The notes: generated by a model from the sequence alone, not told the origin. 55,930 bases of DNA from Candidatus Poseidoniales archaeon (GCA_038105035.1 JAYOBT010000008.1:1-55930); one strand, 5' to 3'. Shown: positions 29,440-38,016, numbered from the stretch's first letter. Numbers and translations: made by a program.

Positions 29440-29507
29440 ACAACGCTTAATTTTTGGTTGGAAAAGAGCGAGTGTTCAAGAACGGTTGGCATCAAGATGC
29501 AACCAGC

Positions 29508-30692
29508 ATGAGCGACTATCTCGACCGAATCGGTTCAGGATTTATCCTCCTGAACCCTGATCCTCTGGACTTTGACTACATTCCAGAGGCGATGGTAGGG
29601 CGAGAAAGCATTCAACAAACTCTTGCAGGAAAATTTCATTCCATCGCTCATCCTAATGGGAGTGCAAATGTGGTCATCACTGGTCCAGTGGGAAGTGGAA
29701 AAACGCTTCTTGCTCGAACATTCTGCCGTGATATTGAACACCACCTACGGAACAAGCGACCGATAAAAAGCGTTCACATCAACTGTCGAAATGCGACAAC
29801 AAACGTCCGAGTTGCCCAACGTATTGTTCAGTCCCTCGATCCTGGTCATCCAGATCGTGGGCTTTCGATGGGTGAATTGTTGAGCAGTCTGAGAAAACTA
29901 TTGAGAAACAACGGACGACATTTGATCATCGTCTTGGACGAAGTCGATCATTTGTTGCGGAAATCTGGAAACGACCTTATCTATCAATTGCTTCGGATAG
30001 ATGAGGATCAAGACGGAAGTGGTACGCTATCTCTCATTCTCATTAGCCAAGAGCAAGTGCTTGATGTTCTCGAAAACGCTGTCATTTCCAGGTTTGGCCA
30101 CACCAACCATTTGCCTATACCGCCTTACGACATGAAAGGACTTCTTGCGATTGCACGACAGCGTGCTGAAGCTGCACTCAATCCCAAATCATGGGATGAA
30201 GAACTGCTCAAGCTTATCGCTACGTCTGCGGCTCCCTCCGGTGATGCCAGACAGGTGATTGAACTGCTTGGTGCTGCTGTTGAACATGCTGAATCCGATG
30301 GACAAAAGAGCATCCTTCCTGAACACGTTCAGACCAAGGCTCGCGATGTCCCCCAGGTTATGCCAGAGGATGTTCTCGATGAGTTATCTGGCCACTCGAT
30401 GTTGGTCCTCCTCGGCGTTTGCCGACGTTTGCGGAAGGCTGAATTCATGACCAGCAAAGACGTCGAGTCAATTTATGCTGTGGTTTGCGAAGAGTACGAA
30501 GTGAAGCCACGTAGCCATACAACCGTCTGGAAATTCCTCAAGCACATCGAGAGTTTGAACATCATCGCCACCCGTGTCGATACGGTAGGTGAAGGACGTG
30601 GACGAACAACTCACATCTCTATGCCACACGCTCTCCCAGTGGATGTTGCTGCGCGAATTGAAGGTCGTGTTGCTCGGAAACTGAAACGATGA
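29508..30692 (+). CDS. cdc6: Orc1/Cdc6 replication initiator family protein
   Basis: LDFDYIPE..VGRE, Walker A GPVGSGKT, HINC, Walker B VLDEVD, GDARQ, C-terminal winged helix with GRGRT wing. Confidence 0.93.
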   Translation: MSDYLDRIGSGFILLNPDPLDFDYIPEAMVGRESIQQTLAGKFHSIAHPNGSANVVITGPVGSGKTLLARTFCRDIEHHLRNKRPIKSVHINCRNATTNVRVAQRIVQSLDPGHPDRGLSMGELLSSLRKLLRNNGRHLIIVLDEVDHLLRKSGNDLIYQLLRIDEDQDGSGTLSLILISQEQVLDVLENAVISRFGHTNHLPIPPYDMKGLLAIARQRAEAALNPKSWDEELLKLIATSAAPSGDARQVIELLGAAVEHAESDGQKSILPEHVQTKARDVPQVMPEDVLDELSGHSMLVLLGVCRRLRKAEFMTSKDVESIYAVVCEEYEVKPRSHTTVWKFLKHIESLNIIATRVDTVGEGRGRTTHISMPHALPVDVAARIEGRVARKLKR

Positions 30693-33016: not shown

Positions 33017-33054
33017 TGGAGTTATTATATACGCCCATTTTTCTAATAACTCCA
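33017..33054. promoter_or_regulatory. Perfect 11-bp inverted repeat overlapping a TATA-like box; candidate operator
   Basis: TGGAGTTATTA (33017-33027), N16, TAATAACTCCA (33044-33054). TTATATA about 25 nt upstream of ATG 33054, preceded by an AT-rich tract. Confidence 0.65.
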
Positions 33055-33467
33055 TGGCAGTGAAAATGAGTCACCAGATGAGCAACGAGCAACGATCGCT
33101 TCGAACCAAATTGATTCATCTTGGTGCGAACGAAAACACTGCAAGTGTACTGCTCTGTCTACACCACCACGGGGCCTCGACCTCGAAAGACTTGCAATGC
33201 CATTGCAACATTCGACAACCGGATGTAAGTATGGCAATTGCCGAATTACGTGAAATGAACCTTGTTCATTTTTCTCCACGGACAGAAGCCTCACGTGGCC
33301 GTCCTGCTCACATCTATCGCCTTCGTATGAGCCTTGAACAATCGATTCAGCCTTTCGTCAAGCAAGCAAGGAAACGAGCCAAAGAAATTCTCAACGATGT
33401 TGATGCAATTAGCGAGTTGGTCTCGAAAGTCGAGCCACACCAAAACCGAGAATTCACGGCAGCGTAA
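33054..33467 (+). CDS. Winged-helix transcriptional regulator (archaeal ArsR/TrmB-like)
   Basis: TSKDL....IRQPDVSMAIAELREMNLV...RGRPAHIYRL. Confidence 0.82.
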   Translation: MAVKMSHQMSNEQRSLRTKLIHLGANENTASVLLCLHHHGASTSKDLQCHCNIRQPDVSMAIAELREMNLVHFSPRTEASRGRPAHIYRLRMSLEQSIQPFVKQARKRAKEILNDVDAISELVSKVEPHQNREFTAA

Positions 33468-33759
33468 ACAAGACATCATCTCCATGCCCATCAAGCAGAC
33501 GGAGTTTGACGCCTGCATCAATCCAAGCATGGGCGTAATTGATTGCTCCGAAGGCACGAATAAGATCTCCTTGCTCCATGAAGTACTGTGCATCATTCGC
33601 ATAGTCATCAGCCATCGAAAGCAAGGTGTTGAGCATTGATTCTTGTTCTGGCGTCGACGCAAGAGGTGTGGCTTTCGCCCGAGCCTTCTCTGTAATGGAT
33701 AGATAATGCTTCACGCGTTCAAGTGTGAGGGTTTCATCAGGATTCAGTTGAATCACCAC
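33454..33759 (-). CDS. DUF357 family protein
   Basis: MADDYANDAQYF...GD.IRAFGAINYAHAWIDAGVKL. Start uncertain (GTG near 33759, overlapping the upstream stop). Confidence 0.82.
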   Translation of the reverse strand: MVIQLNPDETLTLERVKHYLSITEKARAKATPLASTPEQESMLNTLLSMADDYANDAQYFMEQGDLIRAFGAINYAHAWIDAGVKLRLLDGHGDDVLFTLP

Positions 33760-34789
33760 CCTTTTGCCTTCGCAAGAGCCGCTGGACATCCTCTTTCCTA
33801 CCCAACGCTTCGTAGAGTTCAATGGCTCGAGACAAGCGTCCTTCATCTTCCGCAGTGAGTGCTCGCTGGAACAATTGACGACGCTCTTCCCATGAACGGG
33901 CTAGTTTAGCATCTGCTGCTTCCTTTCGTCGATGGCGTCGCTGTTCCTCTGCTAGATGAGGAGCTAACCAGCGTCGAATCAACCCATCACGACGACATGT
34001 GACCATTGAATCACGTCCAAGATTGATCAGCATATCTCCGAGTTTCATGCCTTCTCCGACCTTGGTTTCACCGGTTTCAGTGCTCATATGGTCCAAATGC
34101 CCTTCAATGCCGAGCACCCACCAGCCATCACCAGCGCGAGTTGCAACAAGTGGCTCAAGCGATTCAATTTCGATGCGGTCAATCGAATCCCAACCGTAGG
34201 GATGTGGAATTCCGTCCCATAACTGCCCATCTGCGGATTGAAGAAGCATGTGACCCTCATTGAGATGAGAAACCCAACTCCATACGGTCGTATCAACGAC
34301 TCGACGTTTGTCTTGTTGAGCGATTTGACCACAATACACGACTCCGCTTGCATCCTGCCAAAGCAAATGCTCACGGTCAAGCCATCCAATGAGTCGACGA
34401 ACAACACCCGAATGCATGCGCCGTATTCCAACACCATTTGCATCAAAAAGGTGCAGGTTACCATCCCGTCCAGACAAGACCCATCCGCCACCAGGACGGT
34501 TGAGAAGTTGCAAAAAGCCCCCAGGACATGAACGGCCTTCATGGACCATTGAGCCATCAACTGTGTTGAGTAGATAGAAGGCGTGAGCAGCCAAGACCCC
34601 AATCCTCCCATCTGCGTTGCAAATAGCATGAACCTTGAATGGCATACTTCGCTCCCATTGAACCTTGTTTGACTCATCAAACAAGACCAATTCAAGGCCA
34701 TAAGCAACACAAAGATGCCCATTGACCGATTCAATCGCACTCACTCTTGACGGTGCTTGCCAAGACCAACTTACCGACCATGTCATCAT
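33737..34789 (-). CDS. Hypothetical protein, probable beta-propeller with C-terminal helical tail
   Basis: Trp-rich beta-repeat pattern (LFDESNKVQW, GRDGNLHLFD, RRDGLIRRW). ATGA coupling to the upstream gene. Confidence 0.65.
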   Translation of the reverse strand: MMTWSVSWSWQAPSRVSAIESVNGHLCVAYGLELVLFDESNKVQWERSMPFKVHAICNADGRIGVLAAHAFYLLNTVDGSMVHEGRSCPGGFLQLLNRPGGGWVLSGRDGNLHLFDANGVGIRRMHSGVVRRLIGWLDREHLLWQDASGVVYCGQIAQQDKRRVVDTTVWSWVSHLNEGHMLLQSADGQLWDGIPHPYGWDSIDRIEIESLEPLVATRAGDGWWVLGIEGHLDHMSTETGETKVGEGMKLGDMLINLGRDSMVTCRRDGLIRRWLAPHLAEEQRRHRRKEAADAKLARSWEERRQLFQRALTAEDEGRLSRAIELYEALGRKEDVQRLLRRQKGGDSTES

Positions 34790-36504
34790 TCATCACCTCC
34801 AACAATACCCCAAGCAATCAATTGGGCTAACGCACTCCTCGTCAGACCAAACATCCTTGATCGACCAACCATTCGAGCATGTAGGATTCCAGCCTTATGC
34901 AGACGGTTGCAGATTTGAGAAAGACGAGCTCGTTTGATGGAAAGGCGCTCAAGCAGTGCGGCATCTGATGGAGAAATCGTCCGACCCTTTGCTTCGGCAA
35001 CGACAATCGATTCAGATGCAGAAAGTGAACTAAGTACTGCGATACTGAGCACATGCTCTTCCTTCTCTGTCAAACGTGGTCTCGAGATCGCACGGAGTTG
35101 ATCAACGAGATCTTGATTCCCCTCCAATCCCGTTCTTGAGGATTGCAAAACCTGTGTCAACAGATGCGTGAACGTTTCGATGGCATTCATATCGAGATGA
35201 GGCGGCTCGGGCATGTGAATTTCATTTGATTGAACCGAATCCAATGGCTCGTCATAGAACGATTGAGCTTCTTCGATTTCAATTGAATCGACTTCCTTGA
35301 CTTCATCATCCAAGACAGGTGTGGGCTCCTCTGCAGACCAAAATGCAGTACCTTGATCGGTTTCCCTGAACTGGCCTTCAGGAACGGAACTCTTGTCCTC
35401 TATTGCGATAATGTTTCGATTTCGCAATCCTCCAAAAGCACCAACGAAGGGGAGGCTGCGTTCTGTGACATAGGAATCATCTGTAGTCTCCTCTGATTCT
35501 GCCTCAGGCTGTTTCATCGGTTCATCTTCATATTCCTCATCAGGAATTTCGATAGGTTCATCGAGTTTTTCGAAATCAAGATCAAAGCCACTTGCTTCAG
35601 TCATTCCTGGTGTTTGCTCCCATGCCTCCTCTGCCAACTCATCGTCTGATGTTTGAATCTCATCAGCTGGGATTGAAACGTCCTCAACAATTTCTGGCGA
35701 CGAAACGACTTCAGGTGATGGTTCTTCCACAGGGGGCTCATAGGTAGGCTGTGACAATCGACTGCTTGACGTATCTTGGACCCCTGAAACAGCGTTTCGA
35801 AGAACTCGAATCAAAGCACCTGGTTGTCCACTTTGACTCAATTGAAGAAGTCGTTTTGCATCCTCAGTTGACATTTGATATGGTTGAGTAGACACTTTTG
35901 CGATGCGCCTTTCAACCATGGCCTTGATTCCATCTTGTTCCAATTCTGGCATTGTTCGTAGTTCAAAGCGTTGAAGCAATTGTTCAGAGATCAGGGATTG
36001 TTGCTGAGGATTGATAGCGATAATGATCAATGCAGGTAGACTCTCAAAAAAGTGAAGAGATGAGCGTAGACATGCTTCTAGAGAGGAAAAATCGGCCATA
36101 TCTGCATCAATGGTGATGAGAGGTAGCATTTGCCGTGAATCATGGACCATACGACGCAATTCACGGTTTAACTTCGAGTAATCATGAGGTGGTGAACCAT
36201 CAATGAGTTGCGCATACATATCTTTGAGCAGTTCAACACCTGGTTCAGAGAATGCAATCCTGTCAATCTTCAAGTGGAGATTCGTTTTTGAACTCAAACA
36301 TTGCATAAACGATGTTTTTCCAGAGCCAAACTCCCCCACGAGAAGGATACGATTTGCAGATTTGAAGGTGATTTTTCGCTCGAGTTCATCAAACAAGGAA
36401 TGGCGCCCCACCAATAAATCGATTTCATCCTTGTCTAATGGACTGGAGGAAAATGGGTCTTCGCTTAGTGAGGGAAAACCAAAATCGATCGTGTTTCCAT
36501 GCAT
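34786..36504 (-). CDS. AAA+-type P-loop protein with acidic linker and C-terminal winged helix
   Basis: DPF...LLVGR, Walker A GEFGSGKT, degenerate Walker B ITIDAD, long Glu/Asp/Pro linker, LSIKRARLSQICNRLHKAGIL...GRSRMFGLT wHTH. Start set at ATG 36504. Confidence 0.75.
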   Translation of the reverse strand: MHGNTIDFGFPSLSEDPFSSSPLDKDEIDLLVGRHSLFDELERKITFKSANRILLVGEFGSGKTSFMQCLSSKTNLHLKIDRIAFSEPGVELLKDMYAQLIDGSPPHDYSKLNRELRRMVHDSRQMLPLITIDADMADFSSLEACLRSSLHFFESLPALIIIAINPQQQSLISEQLLQRFELRTMPELEQDGIKAMVERRIAKVSTQPYQMSTEDAKRLLQLSQSGQPGALIRVLRNAVSGVQDTSSSRLSQPTYEPPVEEPSPEVVSSPEIVEDVSIPADEIQTSDDELAEEAWEQTPGMTEASGFDLDFEKLDEPIEIPDEEYEDEPMKQPEAESEETTDDSYVTERSLPFVGAFGGLRNRNIIAIEDKSSVPEGQFRETDQGTAFWSAEEPTPVLDDEVKEVDSIEIEEAQSFYDEPLDSVQSNEIHMPEPPHLDMNAIETFTHLLTQVLQSSRTGLEGNQDLVDQLRAISRPRLTEKEEHVLSIAVLSSLSASESIVVAEAKGRTISPSDAALLERLSIKRARLSQICNRLHKAGILHARMVGRSRMFGLTRSALAQLIAWGIVGGDE

Positions 36505-36610
36505 AGCCGACCAACTTTGACCAAGTATATGATATTTCACAGGCTTGAAGCGATTCAGCGACGTGTTATGAAACGTTAATCGATAAGCCAAGCAGGCGTA
36601 TAGTCATAGA

Positions 36611-36665
36611 TTAACGCAAGGTTAACGCAAAAATAACGCGTTAATAGAAGCGTTAAACGCGTTAA
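36611..36665. repeat. Array of TAACGC / GCGTTA direct and inverted repeats
   Basis: TAACGC at 36612, 36623, 36634. GCGTTA at 36638, 36650, 36659. Central palindrome TAACGCGTTA at 36634-36643. Confidence 0.8.
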
Positions 36666-36720
36666 AAACATCCGATTGGTTCATGCATCTCATATCCCTC
36701 GGTCGTTTCGAGGAGAACTC

Positions 36721-38016
36721 ATGCCAGTGGACAATAGCCGCCTCAAAGGCTTCTACAAACTTGATGTCGAGCAACGCCGGCAAATGGTTGCCGAACTTGC
36801 AAATCTGAGTGAAGAGCAGGTCGCAGCTTTGGCTGCAAATGGAGAACTGGATGATGCTTCAGCCGATCGGATGATAGAGAATGTCATCGGAACCATGTCG
36901 CTTCCTGTGGGCGTTGCCACTAATTTCATCGTCGACAAAAAGCACTACATCGTCCCATTTTGCCTTGAAGAGTCGAGTGTTGTAGCCGCGGCATCAAACA
37001 TGGCTAAACGCTGCCACGCAAAAGGTGGATTTACCTCAAACAATGATGGTCCGATGATGATCGCTCAAATACAACTCCTTGATGTAAAGGACCATCAGGC
37101 AGCAATTCAGAGAATTGATGAATGTAAAACTCAATTGATGAATCTTGCAAACAGCCTTCCATCGACGATGATACGTCTTGGAGGAGGTTGTAAGGACATA
37201 ACAACTCGCTCACTTGAGACATTGTCTGGGCCAATGCTCATCGTTCACATCCACGTAGACTGTCGTGATGCGATGGGCGCCAATGCTGTGAATACGATGG
37301 CAGAACTATTGGCGCCTGAATTGGAGAGCATCACATCCGGTCGTTCACTTTTGAGGATTCTTTCAAACCTCGCTACGCAACGACTTGCACGAGTTTCAGC
37401 AACATTTACTCCTGAAGAGATGAGCAATATGGGCGATGTGGACGATGGAAAGAAAATCATCGAAGGAATCCTTGAAGCACATCACTTCGCCATGGCAGAT
37501 CCTTACAGGGCTGCAACTCACAACAAAGGCGTCATGAATGGAATCTCTGCCGTAGCCGTAGCCTGTGGCCAAGATTGGCGTGCTGTAGAAGCAGGATGTC
37601 ATGCATACGTTGCTTACCATCATGGGCGCTACAGTTCAATGACGCACTGGGAGAAGGATGCGGAAGGAAACCTACTCGGTACAATTGAGACACCTATGGC
37701 TGTTGGAATCGTAGGAGGGGCTTCGAAAGTACATCCTGTCGCTCGGGCAAATCTCGAAATTCTAGGTGTTGAGTCTGCCCAAGAGTTGGCTTCAATCATG
37801 GCTGCAGCAGGTCTTGCGCAGAATCTAGGCGCATTGCGAGCCTTAGCAACAAGTGGGATTCAGAAAGGGCACATGCGTCTTCATGCCAAAAACATGGCAG
37901 TGAGTGCTGGAGCCATTGGCGAAGAAATTGAGAAAGTTGCTCAACGATTGATTGCAGAAGAAGGGCCAAAAACGCAAACAAGAGTTGCTGAAATCCTCGA
38001 AGAGATGAGAGAATAA
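36721..38016 (+). CDS. mvaA: Class II (bacterial-type) hydroxymethylglutaryl-CoA reductase
   Basis: NSRLKGFYKL, MIENVIG, EESSVVAA, DAMGAN, RAATHNKG, GIQKGHMRLHA. Confidence 0.94.
   Translation: MPVDNSRLKGFYKLDVEQRRQMVAELANLSEEQVAALAANGELDDASADRMIENVIGTMSLPVGVATNFIVDKKHYIVPFCLEESSVVAAASNMAKRCHAKGGFTSNNDGPMMIAQIQLLDVKDHQAAIQRIDECKTQLMNLANSLPSTMIRLGGGCKDITTRSLETLSGPMLIVHIHVDCRDAMGANAVNTMAELLAPELESITSGRSLLRILSNLATQRLARVSATFTPEEMSNMGDVDDGKKIIEGILEAHHFAMADPYRAATHNKGVMNGISAVAVACGQDWRAVEAGCHAYVAYHHGRYSSMTHWEKDAEGNLLGTIETPMAVGIVGGASKVHPVARANLEILGVESAQELASIMAAAGLAQNLGALRALATSGIQKGHMRLHAKNMAVSAGAIGEEIEKVAQRLIAEEGPKTQTRVAEILEEMRE

Follow-up and report, generated by a model that had tools for sequence, protein, structure and literature searches.

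The window analysed here is a contig of 55,930 bp (C55; GCA_038105035.1, JAYOBT010000008.1:1-55930) from a 1.86 Mb, 86%-complete Poseidoniaceae (Marine Group II) genome of a Candidatus Poseidoniales archaeon. It contains three translationally coupled minus-strand open reading frames (ORFs), here named A, B and C, with a phased array of TTAACGC/GCGTTAA repeats upstream of A. The best reading of gene A, drawn from sequence comparisons and structure models and held with a little less than even confidence, is that it is an order-specific derivative of an Orc1/Cdc6-type AAA+ module, and that its product would serve as a non-hydrolysing nucleotide switch or scaffold that binds the array and controls its own promoter, and possibly also that of the divergent HMG-CoA reductase gene.

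The A family, its architecture and the array appear undescribed, since A has no curated Pfam or NCBIfam model, the source names read 'hypothetical', and the literature searched yielded no description of the family or the repeat; the homologue table of PMC3914693 might list A as a divergent copy. That paper puts uncultured Marine Group II in its Orc1-2 cluster. A first-pass annotation of the window, made from its sequence alone, had likewise marked the operon as uncharacterised, and the ORF calls confirm its outline of three overlapping minus-strand genes, with an ATGA at 34786-34789 common to the A stop (TGA) and the B start (ATG), and a B/C overlap at about 33737-33759 in the GTG-start form of C. 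The features are as follows.

34786..36504 (stop codon included), minus strand: gene A, a 572-residue AAA+/acidic linker/winged-helix protein (ORF, homologue start, AlphaFold model)
35764..36504, minus strand: A residues 1-247, N-terminal NPF segment followed by an Orc1/Cdc6-like AAA+ base and lid with a degenerate catalytic set
35191..35763, minus strand: A residues 248-438, acidic linker predicted to be disordered, with three conserved short motifs (pLDDT mostly below 50; 29% Asp+Glu)
35410..35451, minus strand: linker motif P-x-x-G-x-F-x-G-L-x-x-R-x-[RK], residues 352-365, with invariant Arg363
34789..35190, minus strand: A residues 439-572, two helices and an ArsR-type winged helix-turn-helix (pLDDT, alignment invariants, PDB profile search)
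36562..36666, no strand assigned: TTAACGC/GCGTTAA array with 11-bp phasing, opposed arms around TAACGCGTTA and a promoter-proximal half-site pair
36525..36539, minus strand: TATA-like element TGAAATATCATATAC, 22-36 nt upstream of the A ATG; probable promoter, with a short or absent leader
33737..34789, minus strand: gene B, 350 residues, beta-propeller (1-275) and four C-terminal helices (277-343), ATGA-coupled to A
33454..33759, minus strand: gene C, DUF357 protein as read from the GTG start; overlaps B at its 3' end (PF04010 match)
36721..38016, plus strand: HMG-CoA reductase gene, divergent from A, starting at the ATG of MPVDNS (PF00368, E 7.5e-110)

Protein A

The N-terminal module of A has the AAA+ base and lid of initiator type that characterise Orc1/Cdc6 proteins. 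In the AlphaFold model, which like the residue counts given below uses an alignment of 42 family sequences, per-residue confidence (pLDDT) exceeds 90 for residues 10-245 and 95 for residues 485-565, with 248-438 disordered. Foldseek searches with the AAA+ module retrieve yeast Cdc6, Drosophila Orc1, MuB, TnsC, S. solfataricus Orc1 and RFC at E 8e-8 to 4e-7, and hhalign of A against 13 Poseidoniales Orc1/Cdc6 proteins gives 95.3% and E 2.1e-8 over 213 columns, from the conserved VGR motif through the end of the lid. In single-sequence comparison Orc1/Cdc6 still aligns with A over 213 columns (90%); Cdc48 and an ABC-F ATPase align over just 39 and 37 columns of the P-loop. Plain hidden Markov model (HMM) searches are less discriminating. 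The best PDB match is a weak one to Drosophila Cdc6 (2.8e-4), and the AAA+ HMM run against the 4,796 ORFs of the genome returns, after A itself, Cdc48 (3e-6), an ABC-F ATPase (3e-5) and the window Orc1/Cdc6 (5e-5); because these matches are weak and driven by the P-loop, the ranking alone cannot single out Orc1/Cdc6, as the profile-profile and fold results do. Conversely, an Orc1/Cdc6 profile searched against the same genome at E up to 0.01 finds two canonical copies and not A. Pfam and NCBIfam matches to A are confined to sub-threshold P-loop and helix-turn-helix models, and an ESM Atlas search returns only the family's own unnamed clusters, one of which is auto-named 'putative Orc1-like AAA ATPase domain-containing protein (Fragment)'. 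A reading of A as an SRP-receptor or small GTPase (SRPRB E 0.0036; JGI label 'GTPase SAR1 family') was rejected, since the fold is AAA+ with a lid.

The catalytic residues of this module are degenerate. In the window protein Walker A reads GEFGSGKT and Walker B ITIDAD, as compared with VLDEVD in the canonical Orc1/Cdc6 encoded at 29454-30692 (also given as 29508-30692). Across the 42 members the P-loop has the form G-x-x-G-S-G-[Arg 35/Lys 7]-[T/S]-S with invariant glycines, and the Walker B Asp is present in 42/42 but is followed by Glu in none (the commonest residues being Tyr, Phe, Ala, Val and Leu) and then by Pro in 30; a second acidic residue in Walker B occurs in 1/42. At sensor 1 there is Thr, Asp, Asn or Glu, no Arg is conserved at sensor 2, and the position of the Orc1/Cdc6 GDAR motif reads G-x-P-x, with G226 in 41 and P228 in 32 of the sequences. 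Ahead of the P-loop, in the segment L-P-x-L-R-x-N-P-F-x-x-R-P-L, residues P11, P17 and F18 are found in 42/42. As P17-F18 and the P-loop glycines are invariant, the nucleotide pocket has probably been kept, and A would bind nucleotide and hydrolyse it slowly if at all. RecA and Rad51 engineered to carry Arg for the Walker A Lys still bind ATP but have hardly any ATPase activity.

The linker of the window protein is 191 residues long and strongly acidic, with 29% Asp+Glu versus 5% Lys+Arg; across the family its length ranges from 138 to 552 (median 232) and its Asp+Glu content from 15 to 34%. Within the otherwise disordered segment AlphaFold places short helices at residues 311-314 and 358-371, the latter with pLDDT of ~70-77. 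Three islands are conserved, F-[ED]-L-[DNE]-[LFI], P-x-x-G-x-F-x-G-L-x-x-R-x-[RK] and [LF]-W389, in which F307 is present in 25/42 members, L360 in 41, Arg363 in all 42 and W389 in 40. The second of these is retained in a genome in which B was not found (G007), so it does not require B as a partner.

A winged helix makes up the last ~100 residues, with pLDDT above 95 for 490-560 and with S-P-S-D, R-x-R-L-S-Q and wing G-R-x-R motifs that are invariant among 16 sequences otherwise 33-70% identical. A profile of this domain matches BigR (3pqj, E 9.5e-6 over 75 positions), ArsR (3f6v, 1.7e-4) and HlyU (1.4e-3) in the PDB, and no Cdc6 chain at E up to 1. Cdc6_C (PF09079) scores 13.3 bits against a cut-off of 25.1 (E 0.086), the NCBIfam model HTH_metalloreg reaches only E 0.037, and one structural alignment of A to 2v1u spans both the AAA+ and winged-helix domains. 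By its match over the helix-turn-helix and wing the domain is classed as an ArsR/SmtB-type winged helix, of the kind found in transcription factors, although ArsR proteins are stand-alone dimers of ~100 residues and here the domain ends a 572-residue protein.

Compared with S. solfataricus Orc1-1 (2qby_A), A. pernix ORC1 (2v1u) and the copy in the window, A shares the AAA+ base and lid, the N-terminal segment before the P-loop, a C-terminal winged helix and a neighbouring gene position, but it differs in lacking the catalytic Glu and conserved Arg finger and sensor 2 Arg, in having mostly Arg for the Walker A Lys, in interposing the long acidic linker between lid and winged helix, and in having an ArsR-like rather than a Cdc6_C domain. 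The first-pass annotation had read the Walker motifs, the missing Glu, a linker of about 200 acidic residues and a terminal winged helix correctly. Its putative Arg finger, QRF, is present in the window protein but is not a family trait, as Arg occupies the aligned box VII position in 8/42 members; and its equation of AAA+ plus winged helix with the Orc1/Cdc6 architecture stands for the AAA+ module and not for the winged helix. Precedent for an Orc1/Cdc6-type protein working as a sequence-specific transcription factor and not as an initiator is provided by Sulfolobus Orc1-2, a paralogue that regulates transcription after DNA damage. That protein is canonical and active-looking, carries a Cdc6_C domain and regulates many promoters, whereas A is degenerate, tethered and ArsR-like, and has a single candidate target locus.

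The repeat array and its candidate binder

GCGTTAA occurs 11 times in the window versus 2.8 expected, a number reached in 0/100 shuffles. Five exact GCGTTAA/TTAACGC copies occupy 55 bp at 36611-36665, split two to three between the strands and converging on TAACGCGTTA. There are weaker copies in the spacer between A and the reductase gene as well, and two TAACG-type half-sites (36562-36580) form a pair close to the promoter. Six lone copies are scattered elsewhere in the 56-kb window. Genome-wide there are 82 copies in 1,861,139 bp, and the array is the only cluster, containing 5 of the genome's 9 close 6-mer pairs as well as the sole copy of the 10-bp palindrome TAACGCGTTA; a search of the genome for further TTAACGC pairs or clusters that could make up a regulon found none beyond chance-like single pairs. 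The heptamer is itself rare: a random 7-mer should occur ~227 times when both strands of 1.86 Mb are counted, against the 82 seen.

The array is a constant feature of the order. In 15 other loci, 47 of the 48 GCGTTAA copies lie within the spacer between the reductase gene and A, and with six further loci, three of them from genomes in which B was not found, it is present in every other locus examined, covering 19 other genomes. Same-orientation neighbours are spaced by 11 bp in 20/42 pairs and by 21-22 bp in 6. The end of the array and its proximal half-sites lie just upstream of a conserved TATA-like element of A; TGAAATATCATATAC is the probable A promoter, a similar element occurs at the same distance in 6/7 of the loci shown from family f1, and an analogous GCGTAAAYATGTTAA is present in the f3 loci.

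Gene A is found in 120 of the 121 Poseidoniales genomes sampled, and its homologues make up 76 cluster representatives among 1.84 billion at E up to 1e-3. None of 87 other Thermoplasmatota genomes has a full-length match, the two partial matches (E ~1e-6) covering just 61-80 profile positions. Within the order identity falls to 21-25%, and the divergent reductase gene followed by A, B where present, and C is the order in 19/19 other genomes, with C after B, or after A if there is no B.

A lone, dense target next to a gene for a DNA-binding protein usually marks that protein as a local regulator or autoregulator. Because the array is single, dense, phased and invariant across the order despite the divergence of A, and because the A gene always accompanies it and encodes an equally invariant recognition helix, we infer that A is the probable array binder and the controller of the A promoter. 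The winged helix would recognise the TTAACGC sites, probably as dimers on the palindrome TAACGCGTTA, whose symmetry would fit dimer binding as in ArsR/SmtB proteins; the candidate DNA for such a dimer is TTAACGCGTTAA. Additional A molecules would next occupy both of the opposed, 11-bp-phased arms along a single face of the DNA, giving a nucleoprotein complex just upstream of the A promoter and of the divergent reductase promoter that would control one or both, the HMG-CoA reductase gene being a possible second target. Each A would be a static or slow nucleotide-bound switch or scaffold in which the acidic tether joins the AAA+ module to the ArsR-type winged helix, and the conserved short tether motifs would recruit partners. 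The DUF357 protein C would be a constant partner made from the same transcript, and B, with its propeller and helical tail, an optional one.

Genes B and C and the surrounding locus

The B model (pLDDT 88) has 28 strands, consistent with seven four-stranded blades, and four C-terminal helices. Foldseek returns only generic propellers (WD40, BamB, WDR5 and COPI) at E 1e-11 to 1e-13 and TM scores of 0.5-0.64, and the ESM Atlas neighbours are likewise generic WD40 proteins; B has no Pfam or NCBIfam match, including none to Pfam WD40 or PQQ at E up to 0.1. It is present in 77 of the 121 Poseidoniales genomes (59/59 in f1 without the window genome, 2/2 in f2 and 15/59 in f3) and was not found in the other 44, nor in any of the 87 genomes outside the order. 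A profile search detected none in 5/5 small f3 genomes of 92-94% completeness, and A and its motifs persist in genomes where B was not found. In 3/3 such loci C follows A directly. A prediction of the full-length A and B complex scored 0.05 and 0.00 against a mark of 0.32, and carries no weight either way.

C is a regular DUF357 member (PF04010, 68.9 bits versus a gathering score of 29.4, profile positions 2-73 of 73), with PDB relatives 2pmr and 2oo2 at 2e-7 and 5.5e-7. DUF357 was found in 52/61 Thermoplasmatota genomes and 4/4 archaeal control genomes, and PMC12680538 gives it as one of the 76 archaeal single-copy markers of Anvi'o; it is a pan-archaeal core gene and not specific to the A operon. 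The assignments of B as propeller-like (model and Foldseek) and of C as DUF357 (Pfam) in the first-pass annotation were borne out, as were the phased array in front of the operon and the distance of ~1.5 kb to scpB-scpA-smc, with the reductase gene in between. The idea of three co-conserved genes does not hold, given the distribution of B, and neither does that of C as a part peculiar to this system.

In other Thermoplasmatota the DUF357 gene follows a gene for a HerA-like DUF87 ATPase in 5/8 loci read (two by Pfam, three by eye), whereas in Poseidoniales it follows A or B. Examples of the DUF87 pairing are L045:9-1758, which is translationally coupled with an 8-nt overlap, and L030:1462-3202; the window genome carries a DUF87 gene elsewhere. 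This coupling outside Poseidoniales suggests that DUF357 generally works with a P-loop ATPase.

Start sites were assigned from homologues where possible. A begins at the ATG at 36504, as in its 572-residue homologues, which do not use a TTG extension to 36591. The frame of C overlaps the 3' end of B and has no in-frame ATG after the B stop, so that its start is either GTG 33759/33756, with an overlap of ~20 nt, or an upstream ATG at 33789 or 33846; relatives align from residues 2-11 of the GTG form onwards. The listed TTG start of the reductase gene (36676) is probably too early, as relatives' alignments begin at ATG 36721, and with this start the spacer between A and the reductase gene is 216 bp (36505-36720). 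Convergent with C is an MreA/Lrs14-like winged-helix gene at 33054-33467 on the plus strand (NF053756, E 3e-21, 75 bits versus a cut-off of 100), whose listed ORF shares 14 nt with the 3' end of the DUF357 frame.

All 15 loci that contain B share the arrangement of smc-scpA-scpB, HMG-CoA reductase and A-B-C, with an orc1/cdc6-S6e-eIF2gamma-PIN block on the opposite side in either orientation. This block flips relative to A-B-C between families (loci L014-L028), orc1/cdc6 lying 3-7 kb from A or directly beside C in 15/15 loci; in f2 and some f3 genomes it adjoins the DUF357 gene directly. A second canonical Orc1/Cdc6 of the window genome is encoded on another contig (C11:9418-10659, L066; Cdc6_lid and Cdc6_C both E ~7e-24), and the spacer beside it, 190 bp of 57-59% AT, includes no large AT-rich region.

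Alternative readings and significance

Several considerations weigh against A as an array-binding autoregulator. The array binder could be any conserved factor, and with neither the motif nor the recognition helix varying, covariation cannot tie one to the other. Nucleotide binding by the Walker A Arg forms is a prediction. A dedicated autoregulator has no obvious need of an AAA+ module and a long, motif-bearing tether, nor would it obviously need to be retained near-universally in streamlined 1.3 Mb genomes, and the synteny with orc1/cdc6 and smc-scpA-scpB in 15/15 loci fits a role in chromosome biology at least equally well.

The array may instead be the operator of a different transcription factor for HMG-CoA reductase, the operon or both, with A binding elsewhere or non-specifically and acting mainly as a protein scaffold through its tether motifs. 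The array is equally close to the reductase and A promoters, small winged-helix regulators such as the MreA-like protein are encoded nearby in some genomes, and the link between A and the sites is predicted from sequence. We nevertheless consider this unlikely: the MreA-like gene adjoins the operon in only 6/15 related loci, the genome has no second target cluster, and A is the only DNA-binding protein gene that is invariably beside the array, in 19/19 other genomes.

The AAA+ ancestry of A, its orc1/cdc6 and smc neighbours and the opposed-arm geometry may also be compatible with a role in replication or as a chromosome landmark. In one such reading the iteron arms would belong to a chromosomal replication origin or control one, and A would oligomerise there, beside orc1/cdc6, as an initiator accessory or negative regulator confined to the lineage. 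The Orc1/Cdc6-like module, the constant proximity of a canonical orc1/cdc6 and the uniqueness of the array would suit this, and the two opposed arrays with an 11-bp period resemble the low-affinity DnaA-site arrays of E. coli oriC. Against it, two promoters are packed into a spacer of only 216 bp that shows no pronounced AT-richness (58% AT overall, with no 40-bp stretch above 70%). In A the residues for hydrolysis and for the Arg finger are missing and the winged helix resembles ArsR rather than Cdc6_C, and two canonical Orc1/Cdc6 proteins are already encoded in the genome. GC skew, AT skew and ORF-strand bias in 40 samples of 20 kb from a single-contig relative (G003) are noisy and give no clear switch at the locus, ~695 kb; in the same noisy sampling, sign changes of the AT skew fall near 750 and 1215 kb. 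We regard an origin role as distinctly unlikely, and attach a similarly low probability to a more elaborate proposal, in which A would be a chromosome-landmark protein found only in Marine Group II archaea, an Orc1/Cdc6 descendant frozen in the nucleotide-bound state that would polymerise from the palindrome along the arms between orc1/cdc6 and smc-scpAB, mark or gate an origin or centromere-like locus, and use the tether's Arg and Trp motifs to recruit the DUF357 protein, the propeller and perhaps components of the replisome or of condensin, all coupled to expression of HMG-CoA reductase, the gate of the lipid pathway. The evidence for the initiator-like or nucleoid-organising role put forward in the first-pass annotation, and for any tie to Smc, consists of synteny.

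STAND proteins (the MalT/AfsR type, with AAA_16, PF13191) combine a nucleotide switch with a helix-turn-helix effector and typically carry WD40 or TPR sensors. A could be one half of a split version, a nucleotide-binding oligomerisation module with its effector, whose DNA binding would be switched by a ligand or partner sensed by B, with its propeller and TPR-like helices. AAA_16 matches at E up to 0.01 are found in 39/42 members (best 2.6e-8) and nSTAND1 in 13/42, structural matches include CED-4 and plant NLR chains, and the A lid has a G-x-P, as used to define the STAND helical domain, at the GDAR position. But all AAA_16 matches checked fall under the Pfam cut-off (16.3 bits versus 32.6 for the window protein), the STAND definition includes two acidic residues in Walker B where A has one, and the sensor repeats are on a separate, dispensable protein, B not being found in 44/121 genomes although A and its motifs persist. 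We consider a split STAND switch very improbable.

Least probable of all is that the iterons are a centromere-like or condensin-loading landmark at which A assists chromosome segregation or the loading or positioning of Smc-ScpAB: in 15/15 loci smc-scpA-scpB is found beyond the reductase gene, and the array is unique with an 11-bp period, like the plasmid parC sites bound by ParR, but the smc link is one of gene order, Pfam and NCBIfam scans detect no ParA- or ParB-like partner in the operon, and the overlap of the array with promoter-proximal positions of A points to transcription control.

In the surface ocean few archaea are more abundant than the Poseidoniales, which are uncultured, and the control of their replication, chromosome organisation and lipid synthesis is hardly known. 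A is a family near-universal in this order, with no full-length match outside it among the genomes sampled, and stands beside a DNA element that is unique and order-wide; together with the 216-bp spacer it makes a concrete, testable protein-DNA pair. DUF357, a core gene of unknown function, gains a genomic partner. With an initiator-type AAA+ module whose pocket would be kept and whose chemistry would be lost, A is a clear natural case that bears on how pseudo-ATPases may evolve into regulators.

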